Part shown: positions 2,781 through 30,522 of the stretch, one piece after another | Layout: the number at the start of each line of letters is the position of its first letter | Position numbering within the stretch: the first letter of the stretch is position 1 | Source of the DNA: Alloascoidea hylecoeti | Taxonomy: Eukaryota | Direction: 5' to 3' | NCBI GenBank assembly: GCA_001600815.1 | Contig: BCKZ01000004.1 | Coordinates: forward strand, 310,001 to 374,000 | DNA length: 64,000 nt | The notes under the pieces: generated by a model | Database searches by the model: none | Seen by the model: only the letters and a program-made list of their open reading frames with translations | Told to the model about the DNA's origin: nothing | Position numbers and translations under genes: made by a program

Positions 2781-5700
2781 ATGTCTAGTACGGCCGAAGA
2801 AGCAAACTTGGTATGAACTTTGCTTTTTGGTATAAGGCTTTTGATTTTGATTTTGAATCTATCTTAACATACTACTTTTATTCAGATCAGACAAAAACGT
2901 TTAGAGAAGTTAAGTAGACTTCAATCATCTCAACAGCCATCTGAAGAGACAAATGTTGAGAAGAAGCCAAAAATAAGTCGCAATGACTCTCCTCATTTAA
3001 CCCCTCAACCAGTACCACGTGGATCAACCTCGACCCAGAATATTCTTGAAAAGACACCTGTTCCTGTCAAAGAGGTTCCTCCTGCAACGAAACAACCGAA
3101 GCAACCCCTAATAAAAGCGGAGGATCTGGGAATATGGACCAATAACACCCTACAAAAGGTTCTAAAAGCAACTATTAACGTATGTTATCATCTAACTTTT
3201 CATGAGCTGTTGAATATTTTTACTCATATCAATATTATAATATAGCCCATGAATGAAGACTCAAATATACTATTTCTAGAAGAGTTGTACGAAGATAACG
3301 GTAAGTATTGATCATTATTTTTGTATTTTCATCAAGTTCTTTTCTAACTCGCATATGAATATCAAGGACCAACTACATTATCCGAGGATAACCTAGATGA
3401 TATTTTCATGAATGCTATTATGAATAATGACAGTAATCACCCTCAACCTTACAACTACTTATTCTCCTGTTGGGATCGAGCAACTAAGGAAAAATATTAT
3501 ACAAAGCAAAAAGATCCATTAAGAAATGAAAAAATAAATCTTTTGAATAAAACTGCCAAACTTGCTTCAAGTTTTGCTTTATTATGCTTCACAGAAACCA
3601 GTTTTGATATTCCAATTGATCCAATTGTTTCTAGAATAGCTCAGAGAATGGACGTCCAAATTGATTTTTTAATTGAAATTCTCAATAGGGCAGAAGAACA
3701 AGAGATAATTTTATATTTTCTCAATACACTACTGCCAATTATATCAAATTTAATGAAAAATATTTCTGAATATAGAGATGCGATTCCTTATCTTACTATT
3801 TTGCAAGTTTTAATTAAAAAGAAGGCTGTTGCTGCTGTTTTCACTCAAATTAATGGCTTTTTTCTTGATTCCCCACTTGCTCCTGCGTTTGAAGTAGATA
3901 CGATCTTGGGTCCGTTTTACGCTATATCTCCTCTTAAAGACACAACAGCTGTCAAACAATATAATAGGGATGTTGTAGAACCTACTCAAAAAATGATCGG
4001 CGATGTCTCTAGATCACTACAATTGGAACATAACTTAATAATACAAACATTATTTGATGTGACAAACCAAATTATTAGAGGATCTGCAAGATCAAGACAA
4101 GATATGATTAAATATTTTGCAATCATTGTAAATTCAAACAAAAAAAGAAGAGCGATGCAATCTAAACCAGAAGAAATATCTTCAGATGCGTTTATGGTAA
4201 ATATTACAGTTATTCTATCTCAATTATGTTCTCCATTTTTGGATATAGCTTACAAAAAAATAGATAAAATAGATTTGGATTTTTTTAAGCACTCGAGACT
4301 TTTAGATATTGATGAGGAAACTAAATTATTCTCTGATAACAAAATCGCAGATGAATATTTTGGGACAAAAAATAATAAATCTCTTGTTACATCAACTCCT
4401 TCAGATGATTCAAATTTTATTTCTAATATCTTTTATCTTACGGTTGCCTATCATCATTTTGGTTTAGGAGGTTTGTTTCAACACGAAGAAAAGTTAAAGA
4501 AAGAAATAAAAGAACTTGAGTCCAGAATTAAGCAAGCAGAAACACTTACTGGCAATTCCAATGCATCGTACCAAACACGACTCATTATAGCCATGCTTCC
4601 TAGATTCAAGATTGCTAAAAATAGAGCAAAATCTATTCAAGATTCAATTATGTCATTTGTTACAAATGATCAACTACAACCATTACTTTTTGACTTTGTG
4701 TTGGGATTATCTACCTTTATGACGAGGGTAATTGATCCCGAAAACAAACATCCCCAGAAAAAAGTATCACTTCCAATAAAAGATGCGGTTAATGACACTA
4801 GAATTGAGAGATTCAAGTATTTTCCAGAATATTTCCTTGAAATTGTCTCTGGTTATTGTATATACGTATCGAGATTTCAAAATAATCCAGTATACCGGAA
4901 TCTACGACTTGATATAATTACCGAATTTTCTGTTTCGATGCTTCGAACTGCCGAAATGATTAGAAATCCGTATCTTAAATCTAAAATTGTTGAATTTCTT
5001 TTCATTGGAAGTTTGGAAACAAGAGATGGAGCTCCTGGATTTATGTTGACCATTTATGATACAAATGATTTATGTTTAAATCATTTATTACATGCTCTTA
5101 TTGAATTTTACACTCAGGTTGAACAAACCGGAGCTTCTTCACAATTTTATGATAAATTCAACATTCGTTATCATATTTCTGAAATTTTGGATAAATTATG
5201 GCATAACCAATATTATCGAAACTTACTTGAAAAGGAAAGTAAAGAGGATGTCGATTTTTTTGTTAAATTTGTTGCTTTGATGCTTAATGATACAACTTAT
5301 TTGTTAGACGAATCTCTTGCAAAATTACAAGAAATTCACTCTACTCAATCCGAGCTCGATGCACATGCCAAAAATCCATCTGATATTCCTGAACCAGCTG
5401 AGGGTGAGCAGCCTCAAACTCCCCAGGAAAGACAACAGGAACTTGAAGGAAGATTGCAATCCGCAGAAAGGATGGCTACATCCTATGTTGCACTAGCAAA
5501 TAAAACAGTAGCTCTTTTAGGTCTCTTCACTGATGCTGTTCCTGCGGCCTTTTCAATACCAGAAATTGTTGATAGATTGGCAGCCATGTTAGATTATAAC
5601 CTGACTGCTTTAGTTGGTCCTAAATGTCGTGATTTAAAAGTACGGGATCCAAGTAAGTATCAATTTGATCCGAAAGAACTTCTACGTAAAATTTGCACTG

Positions 5701-6212
5701 TTTACATTCATCTTTCCTTACAGAATGATTTTGTGAAGGCAATTGCAAGGGATGGTCGATCCTATAATGCTCATATTTTTGTTAGAGCAATCGATATCTC
5801 TAAACGTCATGGATTATTACCTATCGATGATATTCATAAACTTGAAACTTTTGCCAAAAAAGCCGAAGAGGCTAAAATATCAGAAGACGAAGGTGAAATG
5901 GAACTTGGAGAAATACCCGATGAATTCCTTGATCCTTTAATGTATACACTTATGGAAAATCCAGTTGTTTTACCAGGTTCTAAAATCTCAATTGATTTGA
6001 GTACTATTAAAACGCATTTATTGAGTGATCCCACTGATCCTTTTAATAGAATGCCGTTAAAGTTGGAAGATGTTACTCCTGATTTGGAATTAAAAGAAAA
6101 AATCAATGTCTTTATCAAGGAAAAGAAAGAGGAAGCGAGACAAAAGAGAATTCAAGAATTACATAAACCAATTGAGGGGGAAACTAGCGATGTAGAGATG
6201 GCTGATTCATAA
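2781..6212 (+). CDS. UFD2: Ubiquitin chain elongation factor E4 (U-box), 4 exons
   Basis: Exons 2781-2810, 2886-3179, 3246-3300, 3367-6212 join in frame via GT..AG introns; Ufd2 core motifs (QFYDKFNIRY) and C-terminal U-box (IPDEFLDPLMYTLM...DPFNRMPL). Confidence 0.95.
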
Positions 6213-18975: not shown

Positions 18976-20514
18976 TCATTCTTTCAAATGAGCTGTTGCA
19001 TTCTTATATAATTCCTGCCACATAAATGCTTCAGCTAATAAAATTTCAACTTCTTTACCGCAATCATCCCAATATTTGCTTGGCGGAGATTGTAAAAAAA
19101 CCATAATCTCTTGAAACTCCATTGATAATAATTGTTTTGACCAACGATTTAAAAAAGCAGCACAAACATAAATATGAAATTCTCTAAAACCTGTACCTAA
19201 TGGTTCTGATAAGTAACTATCCCACATTCTTATTATATTTGGTAAAGATAACTCTCGCATTAGTAAACAATTCATCCATCGGAAACTAAATTGAATATAT
19301 TCAATCCCTTGATTATCTAAATGTGCAGCTAATTGTGGATCAATCTTTTTTGTTAATGAATGAAGTGCGGTTATTTGTGAAATGATTCCTGGTTGAGCAT
19401 GAATATAATTGTCTTGTATCGAGTCTAGTAATTTTGATAAACACCAGAATGTATCAGCTTCTAACGAATCTAACTCAGTTTTTGTTAATTTTTCCGGATC
19501 GAATAATTCAACTACCATAAGATCACCAATAGTATTTGGAGGAATATAAGAAGATAGAAAAGTTTGAAAAATTGGAGTTGCAATGTCATTTATACCTTGA
19601 ACATACCCACTAGCTGGATGTCTTATGGCCCAAAGGTATAATATTCTTTCTAATGATCTTTGTGTTGTTTCATAACTATATAAACGAATATGAGGATTTG
19701 TCCTTCTAACATCAATTACAATTTGATGCCATGTTTGTTGATCTTTTTCGGTTTTAAATGATAAATTAATCGCATCAACATATTCTTTTCTTTTTCTTTC
19801 TAAACTTGAGGCATGAAGGTTTGTGTTTGGTGATAAATATGAAAAAAGTAATTTCCAAACTAATGATCTATAGTGTGCTGGTATACCAGACCATGCGAGC
19901 TTGCGCAGGGACACCATGTCGATAGAGTTCGGTACGTCAAGAATGCGGCTGAATTTTGCTTCTTTTGTCGCAGTTGGGTCAAGATTACTTGATTCAGTCG
20001 GAGGTGCAGGTTTGGGGATAGAAGGAGGTTTCTCAATTCGGACATGTGCATCCCAATCATCATCCGAGTCAAAATCACCATTACCGACTGAATCATTTTT
20101 TTCTCTCGTGTGTGTATGTTTTAAATGATTTTGTTTAGTTTCAGTAGAAGGCCGCTGTGAAGATGGCTGTGAATTAGTGTAAGAATAAGAAGCACCAAAC
20201 ACTCTGTTCTCTTCCGCCGATCCTATTTTGGATCGGGTTTGTGAATGGGATCTCAGAAACGATAGGGCCTTTCCTTTTCCTCCATTTTCTCTAAAGACGT
20301 ATGAATCTAGTTTTATAGCCGGTTAGCACTTAATGAGATGTAGATAAAAGAAGGTTTGTTTTTAGATCTTTGGAACGCAGACTTACAACCAGATAGTTCC
20401 TTCTTAAACTATGTTAGTAAAACTGATCAAATATTCATGTATATACAATTTGTCACTTCAATTCCTAATCCATTAAATAACTAAGAAACTTACCTGAGAG
20501 TGCTTATTTGACAT
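18976..20514 (-). CDS. GYP1: TBC-domain Rab GAP, 3 exons
   Basis: IVIDVRRT, ASGYVQGINDI, EADTFWCLSKL, FSFRWMNCLL; 5' micro-exons 20514-20494 and 20408-20387 splice in frame to 20306. Confidence 0.9.
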
Positions 20515-21162
20515 TTCATGTCTCGTAGAAGTTATGATATTTGTGTTCGTTTGCTGTTTTGATGAGTTGTAAATTTGAAAGTAAGAATACTAAATCCGGG
20601 TAACAATAACATACTCTCCAGAATTTCATACTAATTGCAATTTATCAATTATGTTATAAAATGAAATTACTCGGAGCATTAAATTTATATTTATACTTAT
20701 ATCATTATTGAATTGAAATTATAAATCATTGCCCTCTAATATGAACAATGTCTCTTTTTCATTTAAGAAGATCCTCGTATTGTTATATGAACATTCTTGA
20801 TGCCAATATTGATTATCATATCATGTTATTATTATATGCTTATGTAGGAACAGTACTCATAAAATCATAATTAATATTAATAATATATAATTATAGCTAT
20901 GCGATAATATTTCGTTGACAAATCCTCAAAGTACCATTATATATAACTATAGATTATGTTTAATGAATGGCATGCTGCAATGTGATACAAATTGATCAAA
21001 TTCACTTAAGAAAGATAAATTATTATTGATAATACTCGAAGTCAGATTGATAAAAAATGTTGTAGCTGACAAAAATGAAAAATGCATATACCTTGATCAC
21101 CTCTTAATAGCAAAATCAGAAGTTTTGATCGGAAAACAAAGAATGAATACCGCCATCGAGAA

Positions 21163-21768
21163 TTAAACTAGTTCTTCCAAGTAAGTTTTCAGCTTTTCTT
21201 GTTCCTTTACATCTTCTCTTTCCTTTTCAATTTCTTTGTTTTCCTGTTCATCTTTCTTTCTATCTTCCTCTTCTTCTTCTTTTATTAGTTCGTCCAAGTC
21301 ATAATCAAACTGATTCATATCGATCTTTCCAGATGCATCAAAGTCATTCGGTAAAGTTTGTGGTCTTGCTAATGGTTTCCTAAAACCTCTTGATCGCAAT
21401 CCAGATTGAAATTTAAGAGGAATATCATTTTTAGTAACACTAGGTAATCTGACGTGTCTAGCCTTTTCAAAAGCTTCCTTGGCTTTCTCTGTCATACTAC
21501 TTGTTGAATTTCCATATCCATGAGACATTTGGGTAACTCCTGTTGTTGACAATGGTTGATATGTATATGTTTCTGCTGATGAAGTTTGTGCTATTGATTC
21601 TTTGTCATTACCTAATTCTTCTTCACTATCTGATTTTTTCCCGAGAGATGATAAGTTTAATGGAGCATTATCTATTCTGTACTTCCCAATGCCATTAAGA
21701 AGAGGTAATGCAAAAACAAACACAATGATCACTATAATTATAAGAATAAGTATTAGAGTCTGTCCCAT
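21163..21768 (-). CDS. Hypothetical single-pass membrane protein with an acidic, charged C-terminus
   Basis: 201-aa ORF, N-terminal hydrophobic anchor, TCACGTGA upstream at 21881. Confidence 0.7.
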   Translation of the reverse strand: MGQTLILILIIIVIIVFVFALPLLNGIGKYRIDNAPLNLSSLGKKSDSEEELGNDKESIAQTSSAETYTYQPLSTTGVTQMSHGYGNSTSSMTEKAKEAFEKARHVRLPSVTKNDIPLKFQSGLRSRGFRKPLARPQTLPNDFDASGKIDMNQFDYDLDELIKEEEEEDRKKDEQENKEIEKEREDVKEQEKLKTYLEELV

Positions 21769-22559
21769 TCTGTGTATATCGTTAGGCTCCGAATTTTTTT
21801 TAAAAATAAATCAATAGAAGCAAACGTCCTTATAAAAAGTTTGAAATAACTATTTTGAACCTACGCTTAAGTAAAATACATCACGTGATATATATTTTAG
21901 GTATTAGTCAGGGATGCGGAACAACTTACCTAATCAACATAAACAATTGATTCTCCACAATTAATATTGCAATTGAGTCAGTATTTTCTCCCAAAAAAAG
22001 AAATATTATTGCTAAAATAATTAAGTTACATCGTCACATTTTTATATGTAATAAATATTTGATTTAAATTATATTCAGATAGATATTTGGATTTTTCACT
22101 AACAACCGGCCATTCCCTAACAACCGTCCACAGATATGCATCATATAGAATACATCTCCCTGGTCAGCACTTTTATGCAGAAATAGCTAACATCTTGAAA
22201 ATATATGGTAAGTGTTTAAATCAGACATTGATCTCCAAAAACATACTTTCTCGTTCCAAAAAGACTAGTATGACCTTTCTATCCAGAAGAAGTCTTGAAG
22301 AAGTGCACCGATGTGCCAGAGACATCTAAAGCACTCAATTCACTGGAAAACTTAAATGTGCCTGTATTTTTACAATCTATTCTACCTAGTGAGTGACACC
22401 AAAGAATTCTAAAATCTATAAAAAAACAGCTACCAGATTATCCCGTGTAATACGTACAGTTTATATAGACAATAAATAGCTTTGTTAATAATACCAGTTT
22501 TTTTCTTTCTTTCTTTCAACTTCGGAACCTGAATTATCTAACTCTAGATCTTATAGGGT

Positions 22560-24314
22560 ATATTTCTTCCTTCCTGTCTCCCATTTATTTTAAGAGATTC
22601 TGAGTAAAACCATGCTACATCAATCTCAATCATCTTTGACCAGTGTGTAAGTTATAATCTGTCTACTGTGATGCTCATTGCCCGTCAAAACCTTAAATAT
22701 ATTAAGTTCCCAGGTAATAATATATCTACCAAGAAGTCGGTGTTCGTATTAACAAACCTTTCTACAAACGTGTTTGCACATATTGTCAAATTATTAACTC
22801 TCACATCAAAAACGTCCCCGTTCCTTATTAGCATCATGTAATTAGTCCAGTTTGTCTCGTTAGGCGCGAAGAACCGTCCTGGCTTCTCTACATCATATGG
22901 TCGACTCGTAACAGTGTCAATTCTACAGCTTCTCGCCAACCAACAATATTCCCATGCTGTCCAATAATCTGGCTTCATATTAAAATGATTGTGCTTAAAA
23001 TCAGAATTTTTCAACTCACCTTTACCCTCGTACGGAGTATGATGGTCAATGAAAGGCTTAAGTGGCATAAATATGTACATAGCACAAGGTGGTGGTAGCT
23101 AGGTCGTAGTTAAGTGTGAGCACCAACCACAAGATCGTAATCATTACGTGCCGCATCTTCCAAGACAGTAACCGTCATTTTTTTTCTTGGGTGTGATCTG
23201 GTGCCTCGGTAAGTAACCTGGTGACAACAAGCATTCATCAAACAATATGGGATTGGTTTTCCGCAACCAACAGATACCATGGCAGAGTAGTTAGTATCAG
23301 GTACTAGAATGCCAAGAGGTTGATAGCATCAGCCCGTTCGGTTTCAACCCGAAGTTTTACTTGTGTCATGGCGTAACCAAAACCGTAAAAAGATGAATAT
23401 ACTACCCCTGCAAAGTTAAGTTTGTCAAGAACTTTGAAGTAGTAGTGCTCTTTATGTGCTCGGCCAGCTGCAGTACCTGTAATCAAGAAACGTAACCGGC
23501 CACGACAGGTCCTGTAGGTAGGTAGGTAAGCTAACATTCAGGGGATGAGTGAGCCACAGACTTCCTTCATAGTCAGTGCAGCACTAAAGTGTGTGTACAA
23601 CCTCTGTGTAGACACATACAGCGATATGCTTGACCATTCTTCTTCTGGACTCATTCATTCATGTAATCATGTAGTCAACTACAACACCAGGGACCAGCGA
23701 GTTATCACCTTTAGATGGAGTGTCGAGATAGTCATGTAGAACCTCCAAAGAATGCCTGGTTCTAACAGCAATTCGACGGGTCAGCATTGGTGTACTGAAG
23801 TCTAGTAGATATCTAGAAGACCGAACCCATTTACTCCAACTGGCTGTCATAAATCTAGACTGTCTAGGTCCAAACCCTTCAATATCGATAATATCACAGT
23901 CTTCAGAAAAAACAACGGTATTGACAGTTGCATAAGTGGCACATAATCAGGGTCTGACTCGTACTCTACACCTGCAGCCACTGGAGGATAATCATTGTCA
24001 AAGATGTCAGAACGATCGATTTTGATGCGACCATATCCCACCAATTAATACCTTCGATAGCGGAAAATTCCCGTTGAATGTCTTGAGACGATAAACCGAC
24101 ACGAGAGCACATAGCCTTGTAGATCATGTTCAAATTCACAATTCCGTCGGTAGTTAAGAACTCCCCTCCGATACCTGATAGATCGGTGCTCCCTCCTCGG
24201 CAGTAAAAACTCGAGTTTTGTAAGGTTTCCCAAACTTAACCTTAAAGAATTAATCAGAAAAGATTGAGAACTTTCCGGAAACGCTGGTAAAACACTGGTG
24301 ATAAATGTGCTCAT
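22560..24314 (-). pseudogene. Endogenous totivirus-like capsid (Gag) gene, frameshifted
   Basis: Colinear blocks resembling S. cerevisiae L-A Gag as recalled: SKWVRSSRYLLDFSTPMLTRRIAVR~SKWHRRTNLAIDYEAPQLADKFAYR; LYVSTQRLYTHFSAA~KYVNHNRLYNQFYTA; EGSLWLTH~EGYAWLMH; RGRLRFLITG~RGRYPFLLSG; AWEYCWLARSCRIDT~AWKLAWALRVAGYDT; FFAPNETNWT~FYADNGDTWT; NGDVFDVRV~DGDVMEVFV. 3' end approximate. Confidence 0.88.
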
Positions 24315-25971
24315 TGTGTAATTGAATAAGATAAGAAGATTTAAAAAGTTTTTTAATAAAGAGACTTAAACAAAACGGCAGGAAATGAATGAAGAAAGTA
24401 GTTGAAAGTGCATTTTGAGCATATTGCGGTTGTTCTTTAAATCTCGCAGAACTTATGGGTAAAAAAGGAAAAAAATGCCCTTTAAAAGGTAACTCAGGTG
24501 CAGATGTTGAGTAAATGGTTGTTTATGGGATGGATTGAAAAAATGGATGAGCCTATGGCTCTTATCATATATGTATAATTCTTTAGTTATTAAGTAATTG
24601 TTTTTTTAACTACGTACTGTTGCTCTGATGGGGACGGAACATAGATATGGCCGAAACCGAAGTGTTATTTTGAACCGTGTTAGTCGTTTGAAGTCTGTAT
24701 GAGTAAGATTTAGTGCCCAAATAGTATATATTGTCATCTTGGCTGAGAATGTGCAGAGTATACACTCTAGGGAAAAATATAGGAAATATAAGGTCTAGGG
24801 GCTTCAAAATAAGTGCGACTTATTTCCTATAACTTATGGTACATATCTATAAAAGTTAAGGTCAAAAAAATAAAAATAAAGTTTTACTCTTACTATGTGC
24901 ATATGCATATAAATTTATTCTGTGTTTTTTTCTTAGGACCTTCCAAAAAATCCCATCTTTCTAAAAATACCATAGAATGACTTAAGTTCATGAGTTACAT
25001 TAAGCGAAATTTTTGGCAATTCTACTTCTAGAAAACGATTTTAACCAACTAAGCGAATTAAAGATGTAATTTTTGAAAATATAGCCTCTCAGTTCCCAAC
25101 TACAGTGGTCATAATGCTTTTTAATAATTCGCTTTCAACCGTTACGGGGCTGGGATACGGTGGAGAAATTTGCAATAACATTTCTGGGCTACAATTATAA
25201 ATTTATAAGATATGATAGTGCTGTCCATTTAATGTATCACCTAGAGAAGTAAACTTAAACTTATAATTGAGAGCTGTAGATGAAATACCAATATTGCAAC
25301 ATTATATATAAAAGATTGATATTAACGTTAACAGGACTTCAAGGTTTTCAATATCCAAAAACTATGGTACTATCTGGTCGTATATGTTCTCGTATCGGCT
25401 AATCCTCAACAAATAATAAGTTATTAGATCTAGAAAATATAATAAAAGTGAATGGATACTCAAAATGATTTAATTGATCTTATCGGAATGAAAAGAACCA
25501 GCGTAATGGGATGGTAATACCTAAATATAGATTGCAGTGGGTTAATGGCATTTGGAATGGTGTTTTAATCAAAATCTATTTGCAGTATAGAGAAGTCTGA
25601 GTCTGTGGGTCTTGTATATATATATATATAAACTGAAATTTTGAAGAGAAGCCGTAATTCACTGTATAGAGTGATAACTTGATTGACTCCATTTTTCGTA
25701 GGAAGCCCAGCCCGTCTTCGGCGTTAAGGGTGTCGACACTAAGTATTAAAATTACATTTACATACACTAATAGAATCCCTAATTTTCTATCTATGGAACA
25801 CTATAAGCAATACTTTAGGAACAGTTTGAGGTCTTGTAGAGTATGTATTTAGTGGCTCGTTATAATATTTTTTTATTCTTGAAGGTGTCTAAAAAAACAA
25901 AAACGCACACTCCAAGATTCTAGGTATAAGGTTATGGTTGTACCATGGTACGGTTTTTACAGACAGTTTCT

Positions 25972-28524
25972 TTACCGAAGGCTAGTTTCAAGCTTTTGTA
26001 TCCTTATTAATCCACAGGCACTACCAGAAGCAAACCAGTTGCTAAATTCTCTATTCGGATTCCAGGATAACGCTGTGATTTGATTATTATATGGAAATAT
26101 TAAAGATTTCTTTTTTTGGAAATCGATAAGTTTCTAAAAGAAAAAGAAAAAGAAAAAATCGCTGTTAGTTGTTTTATAATTTTCGAGGTGTCCTTTTTAT
26201 ATAAGAAAACAAATTCAAGTACAATGCATGCTCCTTTTTAGAAAAATGCTTACCTCTGCTTTATGCCAATCTAAATAACGATACGTGTTTTCTTTTTCGC
26301 TATATTCAAGAGTGTATAACGATATTTGAGAATAGATCTATATTGTTCATTTAAGTTAGTATAACATCTTGACTGAAAACAAAAAAAAACTTCCAATATT
26401 CTCATACCTTTGACATGGTTTTTCCTGATCCAAATGCTCTTCTAGCACTATTTGCAAGTATAACATCTCCATCAGCACCTGAACTTATTATAAAAGGATG
26501 ATGGGGTGATACAGCAGCAGTGGATATAGATCCACAATGAGTTGTCAATAAGTTGCCGTGTTTTATAGCCAATATTGGATAGAATTTAACTGAAGTGCTA
26601 TCTACACCAATGAAGGAATGCAGAAATTGAGAATATGCGGTGACCGATGATATCTCTAAATGAATAGTAGTTTAGGTTAGCATTTAATTCAAATACGACA
26701 AGAAGAAACGGTGCAAAAGTGTTATACCTTTAGTTCTAGATGATGATACAACCAATGATTGTAAATCATTAGTATCACATATCTTTTGATACCCATCTGT
26801 TGAGGTGGTGAATATAAGATTGGATTTTTCTGGGAAGGCAGTACTAATAGAATAAATATAAGATTCATGAATTGGAACTAAGAATGAAGGTCTATCAGCT
26901 ATAAAATCAGAAAAAAGAAGTTAATATATTGATAATCATGATGATGATAAGTTTTGATATTCTAGCATACCAACTTCTGAAGTATCTTCTAAATCAAATT
27001 CCGATATTTCGCCTAAAAATTCATATAAAAGTATTCAGTTAGTTTGTTAATTAATGAAATGTAAAGTATTATAATCTTACCATTTGCTGTTCCAACTGCT
27101 ATAGCACTTAATGTTCTCCATGTGGCACAAGAAATATATATATCACCGAGGTTAAATTCTCTTGATGGGGAAGAAATAATTTCAAATTTGCTTTGTAAAT
27201 CTTCATTGATATAATTATCATTCGATTCATTAGTAGTATCTATATTAGTATTATGAGATAAATCCAATGAAAATACTCTTAATAAACCATCAGAAAATAC
27301 AGCTGAACAAACAACTTCATTTGAATTACTTTCACTAACTGGTCTCCAATCTAAAGACCAATGGGCACCCCAGTTAATATTAAAGCAAAATCCTTTAGTA
27401 AGTTCTGTTTTACCTGTTGTTGTATCGATTTCATAAATCATTAGAGTTGAAGAAAAGGGATAAAGCAGTTTGCGATGATTATTTTCATTATCATTTGATG
27501 ATGATGATGGTTCCTTTAATTTTGGAAACATAGATAGACTTGGATCAACAATTGACGAATTATCTAAATCTTTACCCAATATACTTACAGATAAGTATTG
27601 CTTTTTATCATTAAAGCCCGGTAGCCATTTAACACAAGTAATATATTTGTTTGCATTTATAATCGACCCTAATATATCTGATTGTGGGAAATAATTTGAT
27701 AATTGGATTATTTGATGTGATTTTAACCATACTTCTTCTTGATTAAAACCCAATCTTAATTTTAACGGAGGAATTTTCATCATTTCATCAACGACTCTAG
27801 TCAAAAAAAAAACAGTTAAATAAAATAAAGGTTAGCTTTTTTTATTTTATAAATTGGTGTGGAATCACAATTAATGATATACCGGTACATACTCATCTGG
27901 TGTATTTGAAACAATTGACTTTGATATACTATTTAAAAATAAAGGGGTTTCAACAGGTATTTCAAAATCATAACCATTCGGAATAATTGCATTATTATTA
28001 TTATCGCTTTTTAGCATTGAATCGGGAAACATATAAATAAATTGTTGCCATTCGATTTTCTTTTTAATCAATTCAATTGATAATTGTAAATTTGATCCAT
28101 AAAGAAATAACACCCTATCTTTGACTGTATCTTTCCTTCTTTCCCGTGTGACTGTACGTTTGATACTATTGTCAATGAATGGTAATAATCGTGCTGATGA
28201 GGGTTTCTTTTTTGGCGTTCCTTTATTTTTTGTGTTAACACCTTGTAGTTCATTATCTTCTTTTATATCAGCTACATCAGCGTCTTCCATAATTTCATCA
28301 TTATCACCGTCATCAGAGAAATTATTATTATTTTCTACTTCTTCGGATTCATTTTCATCACTAACATTATCTGCTTTAAAACCTTCATCGTCATCTTCTT
28401 CTACTTCGTTATCAGTTAAATCCGAAAGCCCCTCAACGTCTTTTAATTGTTGAGCATATTCATTCTCCAACTTTGAATAATCAACTGCAGCTTTTCGTCT
28501 CAAAGACCTCCGTGCTGCACTCAT
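25972..28524 (-). CDS. TFC6: TFIIIC tau91 subunit (WD40), multi-exon
   Basis: Acidic N-terminus, WD-type repeats over several GT..AG exons, C-terminal ALSWNPNREFSNWFASGSACGLIRIQKL; the start could instead be 28536. Confidence 0.75.
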
Positions 28525-29211
28525 GATATATTTCATGGTAAGTTGTGATTATTATTATGCTATAAATTCAAATTTATCTTATGGTAAAAACATCCATACA
28601 ACAGAATTACTATTTTAGGATAAGTAACCGCGAAAATCATCTCCTAATGTCACGCCCCACAAAACCTGACTTTTTAAAATACCCAACTCTATACAAAAAT
28701 GACATATAACAGAAGAAGAAATGTCCAGAAACTGAGAAGGGCTTGAGATTTAAAAGACGCGGTTTGTAGCACACTACCGGTTATTACGTAACCTATCCTA
28801 CATAAAATTATTTTGTTATCTCTATCATAACCGTGATCGCTGATGATTGATTGCAATTCCTAATCAAATTCCTCTATAAGTAATTATGATAATGCATTAG
28901 AATTGGTCAATGTTGATATTTAGTCAAATAAAATTATAAGTTAAAAGAATAACTATAAATTGAATCGGCGATAACTGCCTTATCCAAATTTATAACCCTC
29001 GAATTCATGTGATAGGAAATGTATTTGAATATTGACATCTCGCTCAAAGTTTCCTTTATGTATGAGATCTCATACCAATAATTACCACAAGATGGTAAAA
29101 TGATATTTAAACTGATTAATCCCATAATTGAAGGAAGTACAATCTCGAGTGAGTTCAATTGAAATTGCAACATCGCCATACACTTTAGATTTATAATTCA
29201 TACCAAAAATA

Positions 29212-30522
29212 ATGACTCAAACATTCGAAATCTCTCCAAAGCTTCAAGAAACCGTTAAAGGTTATGAAACCTATTCAAAGGGACATTTTGCACCATTGCC
29301 TATTTCAGTTGTCAAATCAAAAGGTTCAAAACTTTGGGATGAGGATAATAAAGAATATATTGATTTCCTTTGTATGTTTTCAGTAACAAATATGGGTCAT
29401 TCACATCCCAAAATCTTAGCAGCTTATCAAAAAACATTAGCTGAATGTCCAATTGCAAATATGGCGGTCTTAAATCCATTGGTACCAAAACTTGGAAAAT
29501 TGTTATGTGAAACATTTAACTATGATAAGTTTATTGAATTTAATGGTGGATCAGAAGCAAACGATGCAGCATTAAAAATTGCAAGAAAATGGGGTTATGA
29601 AGTGAAAAATATTCATCCTAATGATGCTTTGATCATAACAGGTGAGAATTGTTATCATGGCTGTACTATAGCAACCCAATCATTGCAAATCAAGCAAAAT
29701 CCAAGTTTTGGTCCTTTAGTCCCAAACGTTGGTACAAAAACTCCAGATGGTAAAGTAATCAGATATGGTGTAATTGAAGATATTGAAATTGCTTTTCAAA
29801 ATTATTCAAATCAAATAGCAGCAGTAATGTTCGAACCAATTCAAGGAGCAGCAGGAACAGTTAGTCCACCAAAGGGATATTTGAAAGCTGTATATGATCT
29901 CTGTAAGCAGTATAATATTTTGTTTATTGCCGATGAAGTTCAAACAGGATTTGGTAGAACTGGATATCCATTATCTCATCAATCCGAAAATTTCCAAGCC
30001 GATATTGTTACTTTAGGAAAAGCACTTGGTGGCGGAGTTGCAGCAGTTTCCGGTGTTCTTGGTACAAAAGAAGTTATGAAAAATGTTAAAAATTCTGATT
30101 TTGGTGCAACTATGGCAGGAAATCCACCAGGTATGGCGGCAGCAATAGCAGCAACCCAAGTTTTATTCGAAGAAAAATTATCTGAAAGATCTTTAGAAAT
30201 GGGTAAAGTTTTAGTTGATTATATTACAAAAATGAATCCACCACATGTTAAAGGATTTGATGGATCGGGATTGTTTTTATGTGTTATTATTGATGAAAAA
30301 CCACCGAAAGTTACCGGTAGAAGAATATGTGCATTGGCAATTAGAAAAGGTCTAGTTGTAACTGCTTCAAGTATGCTTCCAAATAGAATTAGATTGAGTC
30401 CTCCATTGAATATTCCCGAGGAAGAGTTATTGGCGGGAGCCGATATTTTGATTGAAAGTCTAAAAGAAGTTGAAAGCACTGAAGGACATATTCCCGGTGA
30501 ACTGAACACCCAATTTTTATAA
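29212..30522 (+). CDS. Class-III PLP aminotransferase, divergent ornithine-aminotransferase-like
   Basis: EPIQG.AG, FIADEVQTGFGRTG, LGKALGGG (PLP lysine), IRLSPPL; intronless. Confidence 0.9.
   Translation: MTQTFEISPKLQETVKGYETYSKGHFAPLPISVVKSKGSKLWDEDNKEYIDFLCMFSVTNMGHSHPKILAAYQKTLAECPIANMAVLNPLVPKLGKLLCETFNYDKFIEFNGGSEANDAALKIARKWGYEVKNIHPNDALIITGENCYHGCTIATQSLQIKQNPSFGPLVPNVGTKTPDGKVIRYGVIEDIEIAFQNYSNQIAAVMFEPIQGAAGTVSPPKGYLKAVYDLCKQYNILFIADEVQTGFGRTGYPLSHQSENFQADIVTLGKALGGGVAAVSGVLGTKEVMKNVKNSDFGATMAGNPPGMAAAIAATQVLFEEKLSERSLEMGKVLVDYITKMNPPHVKGFDGSGLFLCVIIDEKPPKVTGRRICALAIRKGLVVTASSMLPNRIRLSPPLNIPEEELLAGADILIESLKEVESTEGHIPGELNTQFL

Follow-up and report, generated by a model that had tools for sequence, protein, structure and literature searches.

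Totivirus capsid genes that have become part of a host chromosome are well described in yeasts (PMC2805616, PMC3628385), and pseudogenised capsid remnants are described as well (PMC13756089); integrated totivirus sequences are also mentioned for Pichia membranifaciens in a preprint (10.1101/2022.01.05.475065), and a review gives plasmid or RNA virus traces for 40% of 20 budding-yeast genomes (PMC5499181). Past dsRNA virus infection in yeasts is recorded mainly by integrated totivirus capsid sequences. Most of the described cases are intact and possibly useful genes; a dead copy offers a neutral comparison to them. Here we describe such a copy, found in a 64-kb stretch of yeast DNA (the window, meaning the whole stretch that was analysed). 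It is a real, non-functional integrated RNA-virus pseudogene, of a kind already known from other yeasts. In our reading, to which we assign a probability of about 0.92, it belongs to the non-retroviral integrated RNA virus sequences (NIRVs): a non-functional DNA copy that lies in a yeast nuclear chromosome and represents the 5' part of the plus strand of a totivirus, lacking the polymerase.

The closest described cases are the NIRVs of Debaryomyces hansenii, Scheffersomyces (Pichia) stipitis and Candida parapsilosis, which like the fossil described here consist of Totivirus capsid DNA lying between host nuclear genes (PMC2805616). In C. parapsilosis the capsid-like sequence stands alone, as it does here, and in such integrations residues needed for viral function have often been lost (PMC2805616), which is again true of the fossil. 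These NIRVs are described as mostly intact, under purifying selection and in some cases transcribed, whereas the fossil is broken about ten times (PMC2805616). The budding-yeast hosts in Taylor and Bruenn 2009 belong to the CTG-serine clade, and D. hansenii, S. stipitis and C. parapsilosis read CTG as serine (PMC2805616), whereas there is a weak hint that the host of the fossil reads it as leucine; the fossil adds a host that may sit outside this clade.

More similar in their state of decay are the STORM TLC remnants of Scheffersomyces segobiensis, S. quercinus, S. virginianus and S. illinoinensis, which show frameshifts, stops and truncation like the fossil, and whose hosts are wood-associated yeasts (PMC13756089). 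In their case the decayed genes belong to a tandem array of four (PMC13756089), whereas the fossil is a single copy in 64 kb. The fossil further differs from them in keeping a putative viral 5' leader, and we found no relative closer than 37% identity. The Gag of Saccharomyces cerevisiae virus L-A belongs to the same family as the fossil, with the same order of blocks and a similar 5'-terminal RNA motif. In contrast, L-A replicates as dsRNA and has a polymerase and a -1 frameshift in addition to Gag, while the fossil is DNA, has no polymerase and carries Arg in place of His154; L-A is also distant, scoring 29.4 bits against 53.2 bits for the best relative (P0002) with the same fragment. The known picture is unchanged by the fossil, which is an additional data point with one feature of note, the retained 5' leader.

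The decayed Gag copy spans approximately 24354 to 22688 on the minus strand of the window, and is made up as follows.

24315 to 24354, minus strand: putative viral 5' untranslated region, holding AAAAACTTTTTAAAT
24237 to 24314, minus strand: Gag N-terminus, start codon plus about 26 codons, followed by an out-of-frame gap where viral Gags have about 28 further codons
24035 to 24235, minus strand: Gag residues ~55-120, with the GGxxDLxG..LTxDG..N block (PF09220, custom profile, tblastn)
23943 to 24032, minus strand: Gag residues ~155-188, after a gap of about 35 codons and a frame change at 24034-24033 (weak profile score, -0.2)
23662 to 23940, minus strand: Gag residues ~189-272, with the SKW..R..LDF.TP.L block (PF09220, custom profile), ending at the in-frame TGA 23661-23659
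23313 to 23654, minus strand: Gag residues ~273-404 (custom profile), with an out-of-frame gap of about 14 codons near 23570
23113 to 23310, minus strand: Gag residues ~405-467, after a frame change near 23312-23311 (weak profile match, 5.7 bits)
22688 to 23110, minus strand: Gag residues ~468-600, after a frame change near 23112, with the in-frame TAG 23101-23099 and the stop TGA 22687-22685

Judged by sequence comparison, the minus-strand fragments are homologous to the Gag of L-A-family totiviruses. Two of the eight fragments tested matched the Pfam family of the L-A virus major coat protein (PF09220), and did so in colinear order: 23659-23946 matched positions 191-270 (E 2e-5, 23.9 bits) and 23966-24235 matched positions 66-135 (E 0.0087, 15.2 bits), either score alone falling under the curated cut-off of 25 bits; the other six gave no PF09220 match. 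Against L-A Gag (PDB 1m1c), the fragment 22685-23098 aligned with residues 465-575 (E 7.3e-6, 29.4 bits) and 23659-23946 aligned weakly with residues 196-248 (E 0.25). The Gag motifs listed in the initial annotation of this locus can be read in these two alignments: AW...W..R...DT, FFAPNETNWT and NGDVFDVRV in the first, and SKW..DF..P.L in the second. A custom Gag profile built from 16 PF09220-type Gags (686 positions) was covered from 58 to 589, in order and in three frames.

Profile positions 58-120: 24217-24029, minus strand, 25.6 bits
Profile positions 155-179: 24032-23958, minus strand, weak
Profile positions 189-331: 23937-23518, minus strand, 58.7 bits
Profile positions 271-399: 23660-23322, minus strand, 33.2 bits
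Profile positions 405-469: 23310-23116, minus strand, 5.7 bits
Profile positions 470-589: 23122-22760, minus strand, 77.0 bits

Using viral Gags as tblastn queries gave colinear matches, again in three frames, at 24223-22760 only, and all 25 Gag frames, from 25 viral loci, matched this one place in the window and nowhere else in it. Overall, the copy follows viral Gag colinearly between residues ~60 and ~600 (of roughly 690), in three reading frames. Frameshift-aware alignment to eight viral Gags, of which L019 aligned only from residue 155 and L023 only to residue 470, gave 29-33% identity over 344-466 codons, and the order of the blocks was conserved in all eight. Chance is excluded as the origin of this likeness, because the frameshift-aware score was 310, whereas 12 triplet shuffles scored 30-43, the reversed DNA scored 39 and the plus strand scored 31.

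The stop-to-stop frames of the minus strand between 24365 and 22685 form a chain of short pieces across all three frames. Five minus-strand ORFs had been proposed to join into a protein of about 580 codons; the joining holds, but the counts do not, since there are eight to nine pieces with about 540 readable codons. The lower limit of 22560 given at the same time was too generous: the last frame stops at 22687-22685, and detectable homology is gone by about 22760-22715. The composition of the fossil is foreign. From about 22775 to 24275 the G+C content is 0.41-0.49, compared to about 0.28-0.36 on both sides (0.42 for the fossil against 0.319 for the flanks), and its GC3 is 0.387 against 0.221 in 22 host ORFs.

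The damage to the gene amounts to about eight frame-breaking indels, two in-frame stops (TGA 23661-23659 and TAG 23101-23099) and three internal deletions; compared to viral Gags, these deletions remove some 28 codons behind the N-terminus, some 35 ahead of the DGHV motif and some 14 around 23570. With every one of the eight references that spans the respective site, frame changes were found near 24034, 23941-23887, 23655, 23311 and 23112; the first of them falls near 24033 in six references and at 24045 in one, and the eighth alignment begins past the site. The frameshift placed near 23305 in the initial annotation corresponds to the change near 23311. Two extra shifts, at about 23570 and in the (TACC)3+TAC run at 23528-23514, are used by four references, while in the other four the TGA at 23540-23538 is read through. 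We prefer the path with two shifts, in which this TGA would lie off the ancestral frame, because the conserved P.(F/Y)...RGR..FL block continues past the TACC run in the shifted frame. The slippage suggested earlier at 23516-23528 agrees with this, as the frame change fits the run and an extra repeat unit coincides with it. Introns were considered as a cause of the frame changes and rejected, since neighbouring pieces abut within 0-3 bases.

In L-A, His154, part of a Y.DGHV motif, is the cap-accepting (decapping) residue. It aligns with H156 of P0002, and the column is an invariant His in nine Gags; the fossil codon at this position is CGC (Arg), at 24029-24027. With the frame broken repeatedly, no capsid protein can be made from the fossil. 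An intact ORF of the domesticated capsid paleogene type (D. hansenii Cp, STORM TLC1-4) is absent from the locus, which has about eight frame changes and two stops instead. The longest open piece is 23098-22688, with 137 codons from stop to stop and 127 codons from the first ATG at 23068; the remaining pieces are 11 to 93 codons long. One might suppose that this last piece is still used, as a truncated capsid fragment interfering with a related virus. It is both the longest and the best-conserved piece, 37% identical to P0002, and a D. hansenii capsid paleogene is reported to cure a related totivirus (PMC6166632; cited in PMC13756089). However, its length is not far beyond that of the other pieces, most of Gag is missing, and all pieces upstream of it are broken; we thus consider such a use highly improbable.

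At the 5' end the Gag start codon is kept (ATG at 24314). When the first 26 codons were compared to 17 Gag N-termini, L019 was the best match, with 7 of 11 residues identical and MxxFIxxVLPA in common. In a shuffle test the L019 score was reached by 3 of 1000 shuffles, with p 0.011 for L028 and p 0.034 for P0002; the N-terminal likeness was weak or absent (p > 0.1) against 10 of the 17 reference Gags. Upstream of the ATG, by 25-39 nt, lies AAAAACTTTTTAAAT (24353-24339). Save for one inserted C, this equals the first bases of the viral contig L026, which starts with GAAAAATTTTTAAAT, 29 nt before its own ATG; other, related viral contigs have GAAAAAATTA at a like distance upstream of the ATG. 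The AAAAACTTTTTAAAT pattern occurs once in the 64-kb window, where 0.03 copies are expected and where at least one copy is seen in 3 of 100 shuffles, an estimate of chance that is post hoc in that the pattern was chosen after viewing both sequences, in an AT-rich genome.

We take L026 (4579 nt) to be L-A virus. When an 8-residue motif of 1m1c was back-translated, the resulting pattern was matched exactly at 477-499 of L026, and the register of this match puts the Gag start at nt 30. The viral leader thus seems to be retained in the fossil up to, or nearly up to, its terminus, and the stretch 24315-24354 would represent a putative viral 5' untranslated region that apparently abuts host-like AT-rich DNA. 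Because the start codon is kept and a motif resembling the viral 5' terminus lies upstream of it, the copy looks complete at the 5' end and truncated at the 3' end.

The 3' edge is of a different nature. Homology fades between about 22760 and 22688 without any feature to mark the end, and the frame stops at about residue 600 of ~690; the fading falls in a part where Gag varies among viruses, and the G+C content drops to the host level just below ~22775. None of 12 polymerase frames from viral loci matched the window at E up to 0.01, and six-frame Pfam scans of 21800-22803 and 24300-27004 found no RdRp, reverse transcriptase or integrase domain. The layout of a replicating totivirus, Gag with an overlapping RdRp frame, is absent from the window, and no second capsid-like sequence was found in the 64 kb.

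This leads to the question of whether the insert was once longer, comprising the whole Gag or Gag-Pol, with the polymerase and the Gag C-terminus deleted later. The three internal deletions of ~14-35 codons show that the locus loses DNA, an unmarked 3' edge would fit such a loss, and whole Gag-Pol integrations are known in other fungi (PMC2805616); on the other hand, lone capsid integrations such as that of C. parapsilosis are known as well (PMC2805616), a polymerase remnant was not found anywhere in the window, and G+C drops to the host level just below ~22775. On balance we regard a longer original insert as less likely than not. The 3' edge by itself would be explained equally well by the later loss of part of a longer Gag-Pol insert, because this edge is undefined and homology simply fades in a variable part of Gag.

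Neither edge of the fossil showed retrotransposon sequence, a target-site duplication or poly(A). No flanking direct repeats were found, one weak inverted pair is present at 26133-26311, and comparing the flanks to themselves gave low-complexity matches only. Rfam gave no match in 20000-29000 at E up to 0.1, and there are no tRNA genes in the window. We also observed that the segment 22206-22496, on the strand of the fossil, has TGGTA...TACCA ends and is preceded by a purine run at 22517-22498; together, 22517-22206 loosely resembles a polypurine tract with a solo LTR, with no target duplication seen. The summed contig depth over 22197-22530 is about 2.5 times that of its neighbours, and the islands 22084-22145, 22197-22244 and 22378-22426 are common to several other contigs, at ~85% identity.

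The neighbours of the fossil are ordinary yeast nuclear genes, including those for a ferric reductase, a RabGAP-TBC protein, a class-III aminotransferase, an HLH protein, UFD2, ARF, Band 7, TYW1, NUP133, Brix and others; the fossil itself lies in an intergenic stretch between host genes. The 4-kb stretch around it is present in DNA runs of three studies, with no RNA run listed among those carrying it, which speaks neither for nor against expression. Contigs with 0 differences cover 19000-25416 (X1), 22059-25416 (X3) and 22347-25220 (X4), and in all three studies the contigs join the fossil to non-viral DNA. X1 and X3 may represent the source of the DNA of the window, and X4, from a separate sample and study, is the sole clearly independent support; the evidence for the join consists of assembled contigs rather than raw reads. 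The main-path contigs of every run break at 25406-25416, beside a segment with an apparent diverged second copy; beyond this point the link to the adjacent gene depends on the assembly of the window and an 11-base overlap.

In these contigs, virus-derived sequence is physically joined to host chromosomal DNA, which is the mark of a NIRV, and the segment is continuous with non-viral DNA without a single difference; a break between the segment and its flanking genes, which would have spoken against the initial annotation, was thus not seen on the contigs. Its central proposal, a totivirus capsid gene fossil in a nuclear chromosome, is borne out by the Gag homology, the heavy disruption, the flanking yeast genes and this continuity. 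That the frame breaks or the host join are artefacts of assembly, or that a live dsRNA virus contaminated the library, we consider negligible: contigs from three studies, one of them on an independent sample, show the join to non-viral DNA with 0 differences, and about eight frameshifts are not expected in a live virus. Separately, a second contig in each of the three runs aligns to 25190-25475 with 17 mismatches and 15 gap positions; there seems to be a diverged second copy of this segment, ~230-290 bp long, elsewhere in the genome.

The relatives of the fossil were sought by an exhaustive phmmer comparison of the 137-codon piece to 1.84 billion representative proteins at E up to 0.001. This gave 13 matches. 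One is the 127-residue ORF of the window itself; among the remaining 12, eight carry PF09220, two have no Pfam family, and two (P0003 and P0007) are unrelated repeat proteins. The best relative, P0002, has 682 aa and is 37% identical over the 137-codon fragment (E 3.5e-9, 53.2 bits), and P0005 is named as the capsid protein of Cronartium ribicola totivirus 5. Scans of viral contigs returned L-A-like and other totivirus records only, in total 28 loci, including near-complete genomes of ~4.7 kb and L026. A word-based homologue search with the 137-codon fragment gave no match, while the same type of search with a six-Gag alignment gave two proteins; a metagenome scan with the fossil fragment found no relative. 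In a maximum-likelihood tree of 18 Gags, which is to be read as one without cellular outgroups, L-BC or the published yeast integrations, the fossil lies among the viral Gags with an end branch of 2.85 changes per column and no supported sister, compared to a branch of 3.2 for L026. The length of the fossil branch mixes viral divergence with neutral decay after integration. Together with the 37% identity of the best relative, such a branch is compatible with, but no demonstration of, the possibly undescribed totivirus lineage suggested in the initial annotation. As an observation on the viral contigs themselves, L001-L005 have 12-20 additional bases upstream of the GAAAAAATTA motif that resembles the true 5' end; the additional bases could be overhangs of the assembly or genuine variation of the leader.

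Another route would be entry as DNA: a capsid copy integrated earlier in a different yeast would have been transferred into the host, which is what has been proposed for the Scheffersomyces array. Transfer of this type is argued among wood-associated yeasts (PMC13756089), and the DNA of the fossil is also found in a wood-decay metagenome run. However, the viral 5' untranslated region seems to border directly on AT-rich DNA of host type, neither a transposon nor a foreign flanking gene is seen, and a close relative of the fossil was found in none of the collections searched, so that we believe this route to be improbable.

For the direct integration of a totivirus sequence that we favour, the retained 5' leader hints at the copying route, with a start inside Gag and a run to the 5' end. 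We infer that viral plus-strand RNA was copied by a reverse transcriptase of the cell, for which a Ty-type retrotransposon is the most plausible source in yeasts. Synthesis of the cDNA would have begun inside the Gag coding region and run off the 5' end of the template, which would leave the copy complete at its 5' end and truncated at its 3' end. The cDNA would then have been captured in the chromosome, probably during break repair, and would have decayed without selection since, its composition drifting partway to the low G+C of the host.

In its most specific form, the reading would be that the fossil is a run-off reverse transcript keeping the exact plus-strand 5' terminus of an unsampled totivirus lineage, in a wood-associated, CTG-leucine budding yeast outside the CTG-serine clade, from which most of the described totivirus fossils of yeasts come. 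We offer this only tentatively, at somewhat less than even odds. If true, the fossil would be a mechanistic footprint of the copying of a dsRNA virus into DNA, by internal priming and with a full 5' end, as well as a new host record for an ancient totivirus infection.

As for the host, CTG is rare in the window, with 27 of 9565 codons in 22 ORFs and a GC3 of 0.22. At the positions of the two CTG codons of UFD2 (3408-6212, plus strand), the S. cerevisiae protein has Leu and Phe, and one CTG of the fossil lies at a column with Leu in 17 of 17 Gags; the sole CTG of the aminotransferase gene is at a variable column and uninformative on the host code. Taken together these positions give a weak hint that the host may read CTG as leucine and thus lie outside the CTG-serine clade.

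Two of the neighbouring genes call for comment. In a word-based search, the best non-self match of the ornithine-aminotransferase-like protein at 29212-30522 (plus strand) is 64%, and its best named matches, at 45-52%, are from filamentous ascomycetes and not from well-annotated budding yeasts; this may reflect a poorly sampled host lineage, an unusual history of the gene, or closer yeasts missed by the search. On the minus strand, a WD40 match at 26459-26548 (E 6.2e-5) lies in a reading frame downstream of an ORF of 256 codons without a Pfam family (27013-27783), and the two may belong to a single gene that is interrupted by an intron or a break in frame.
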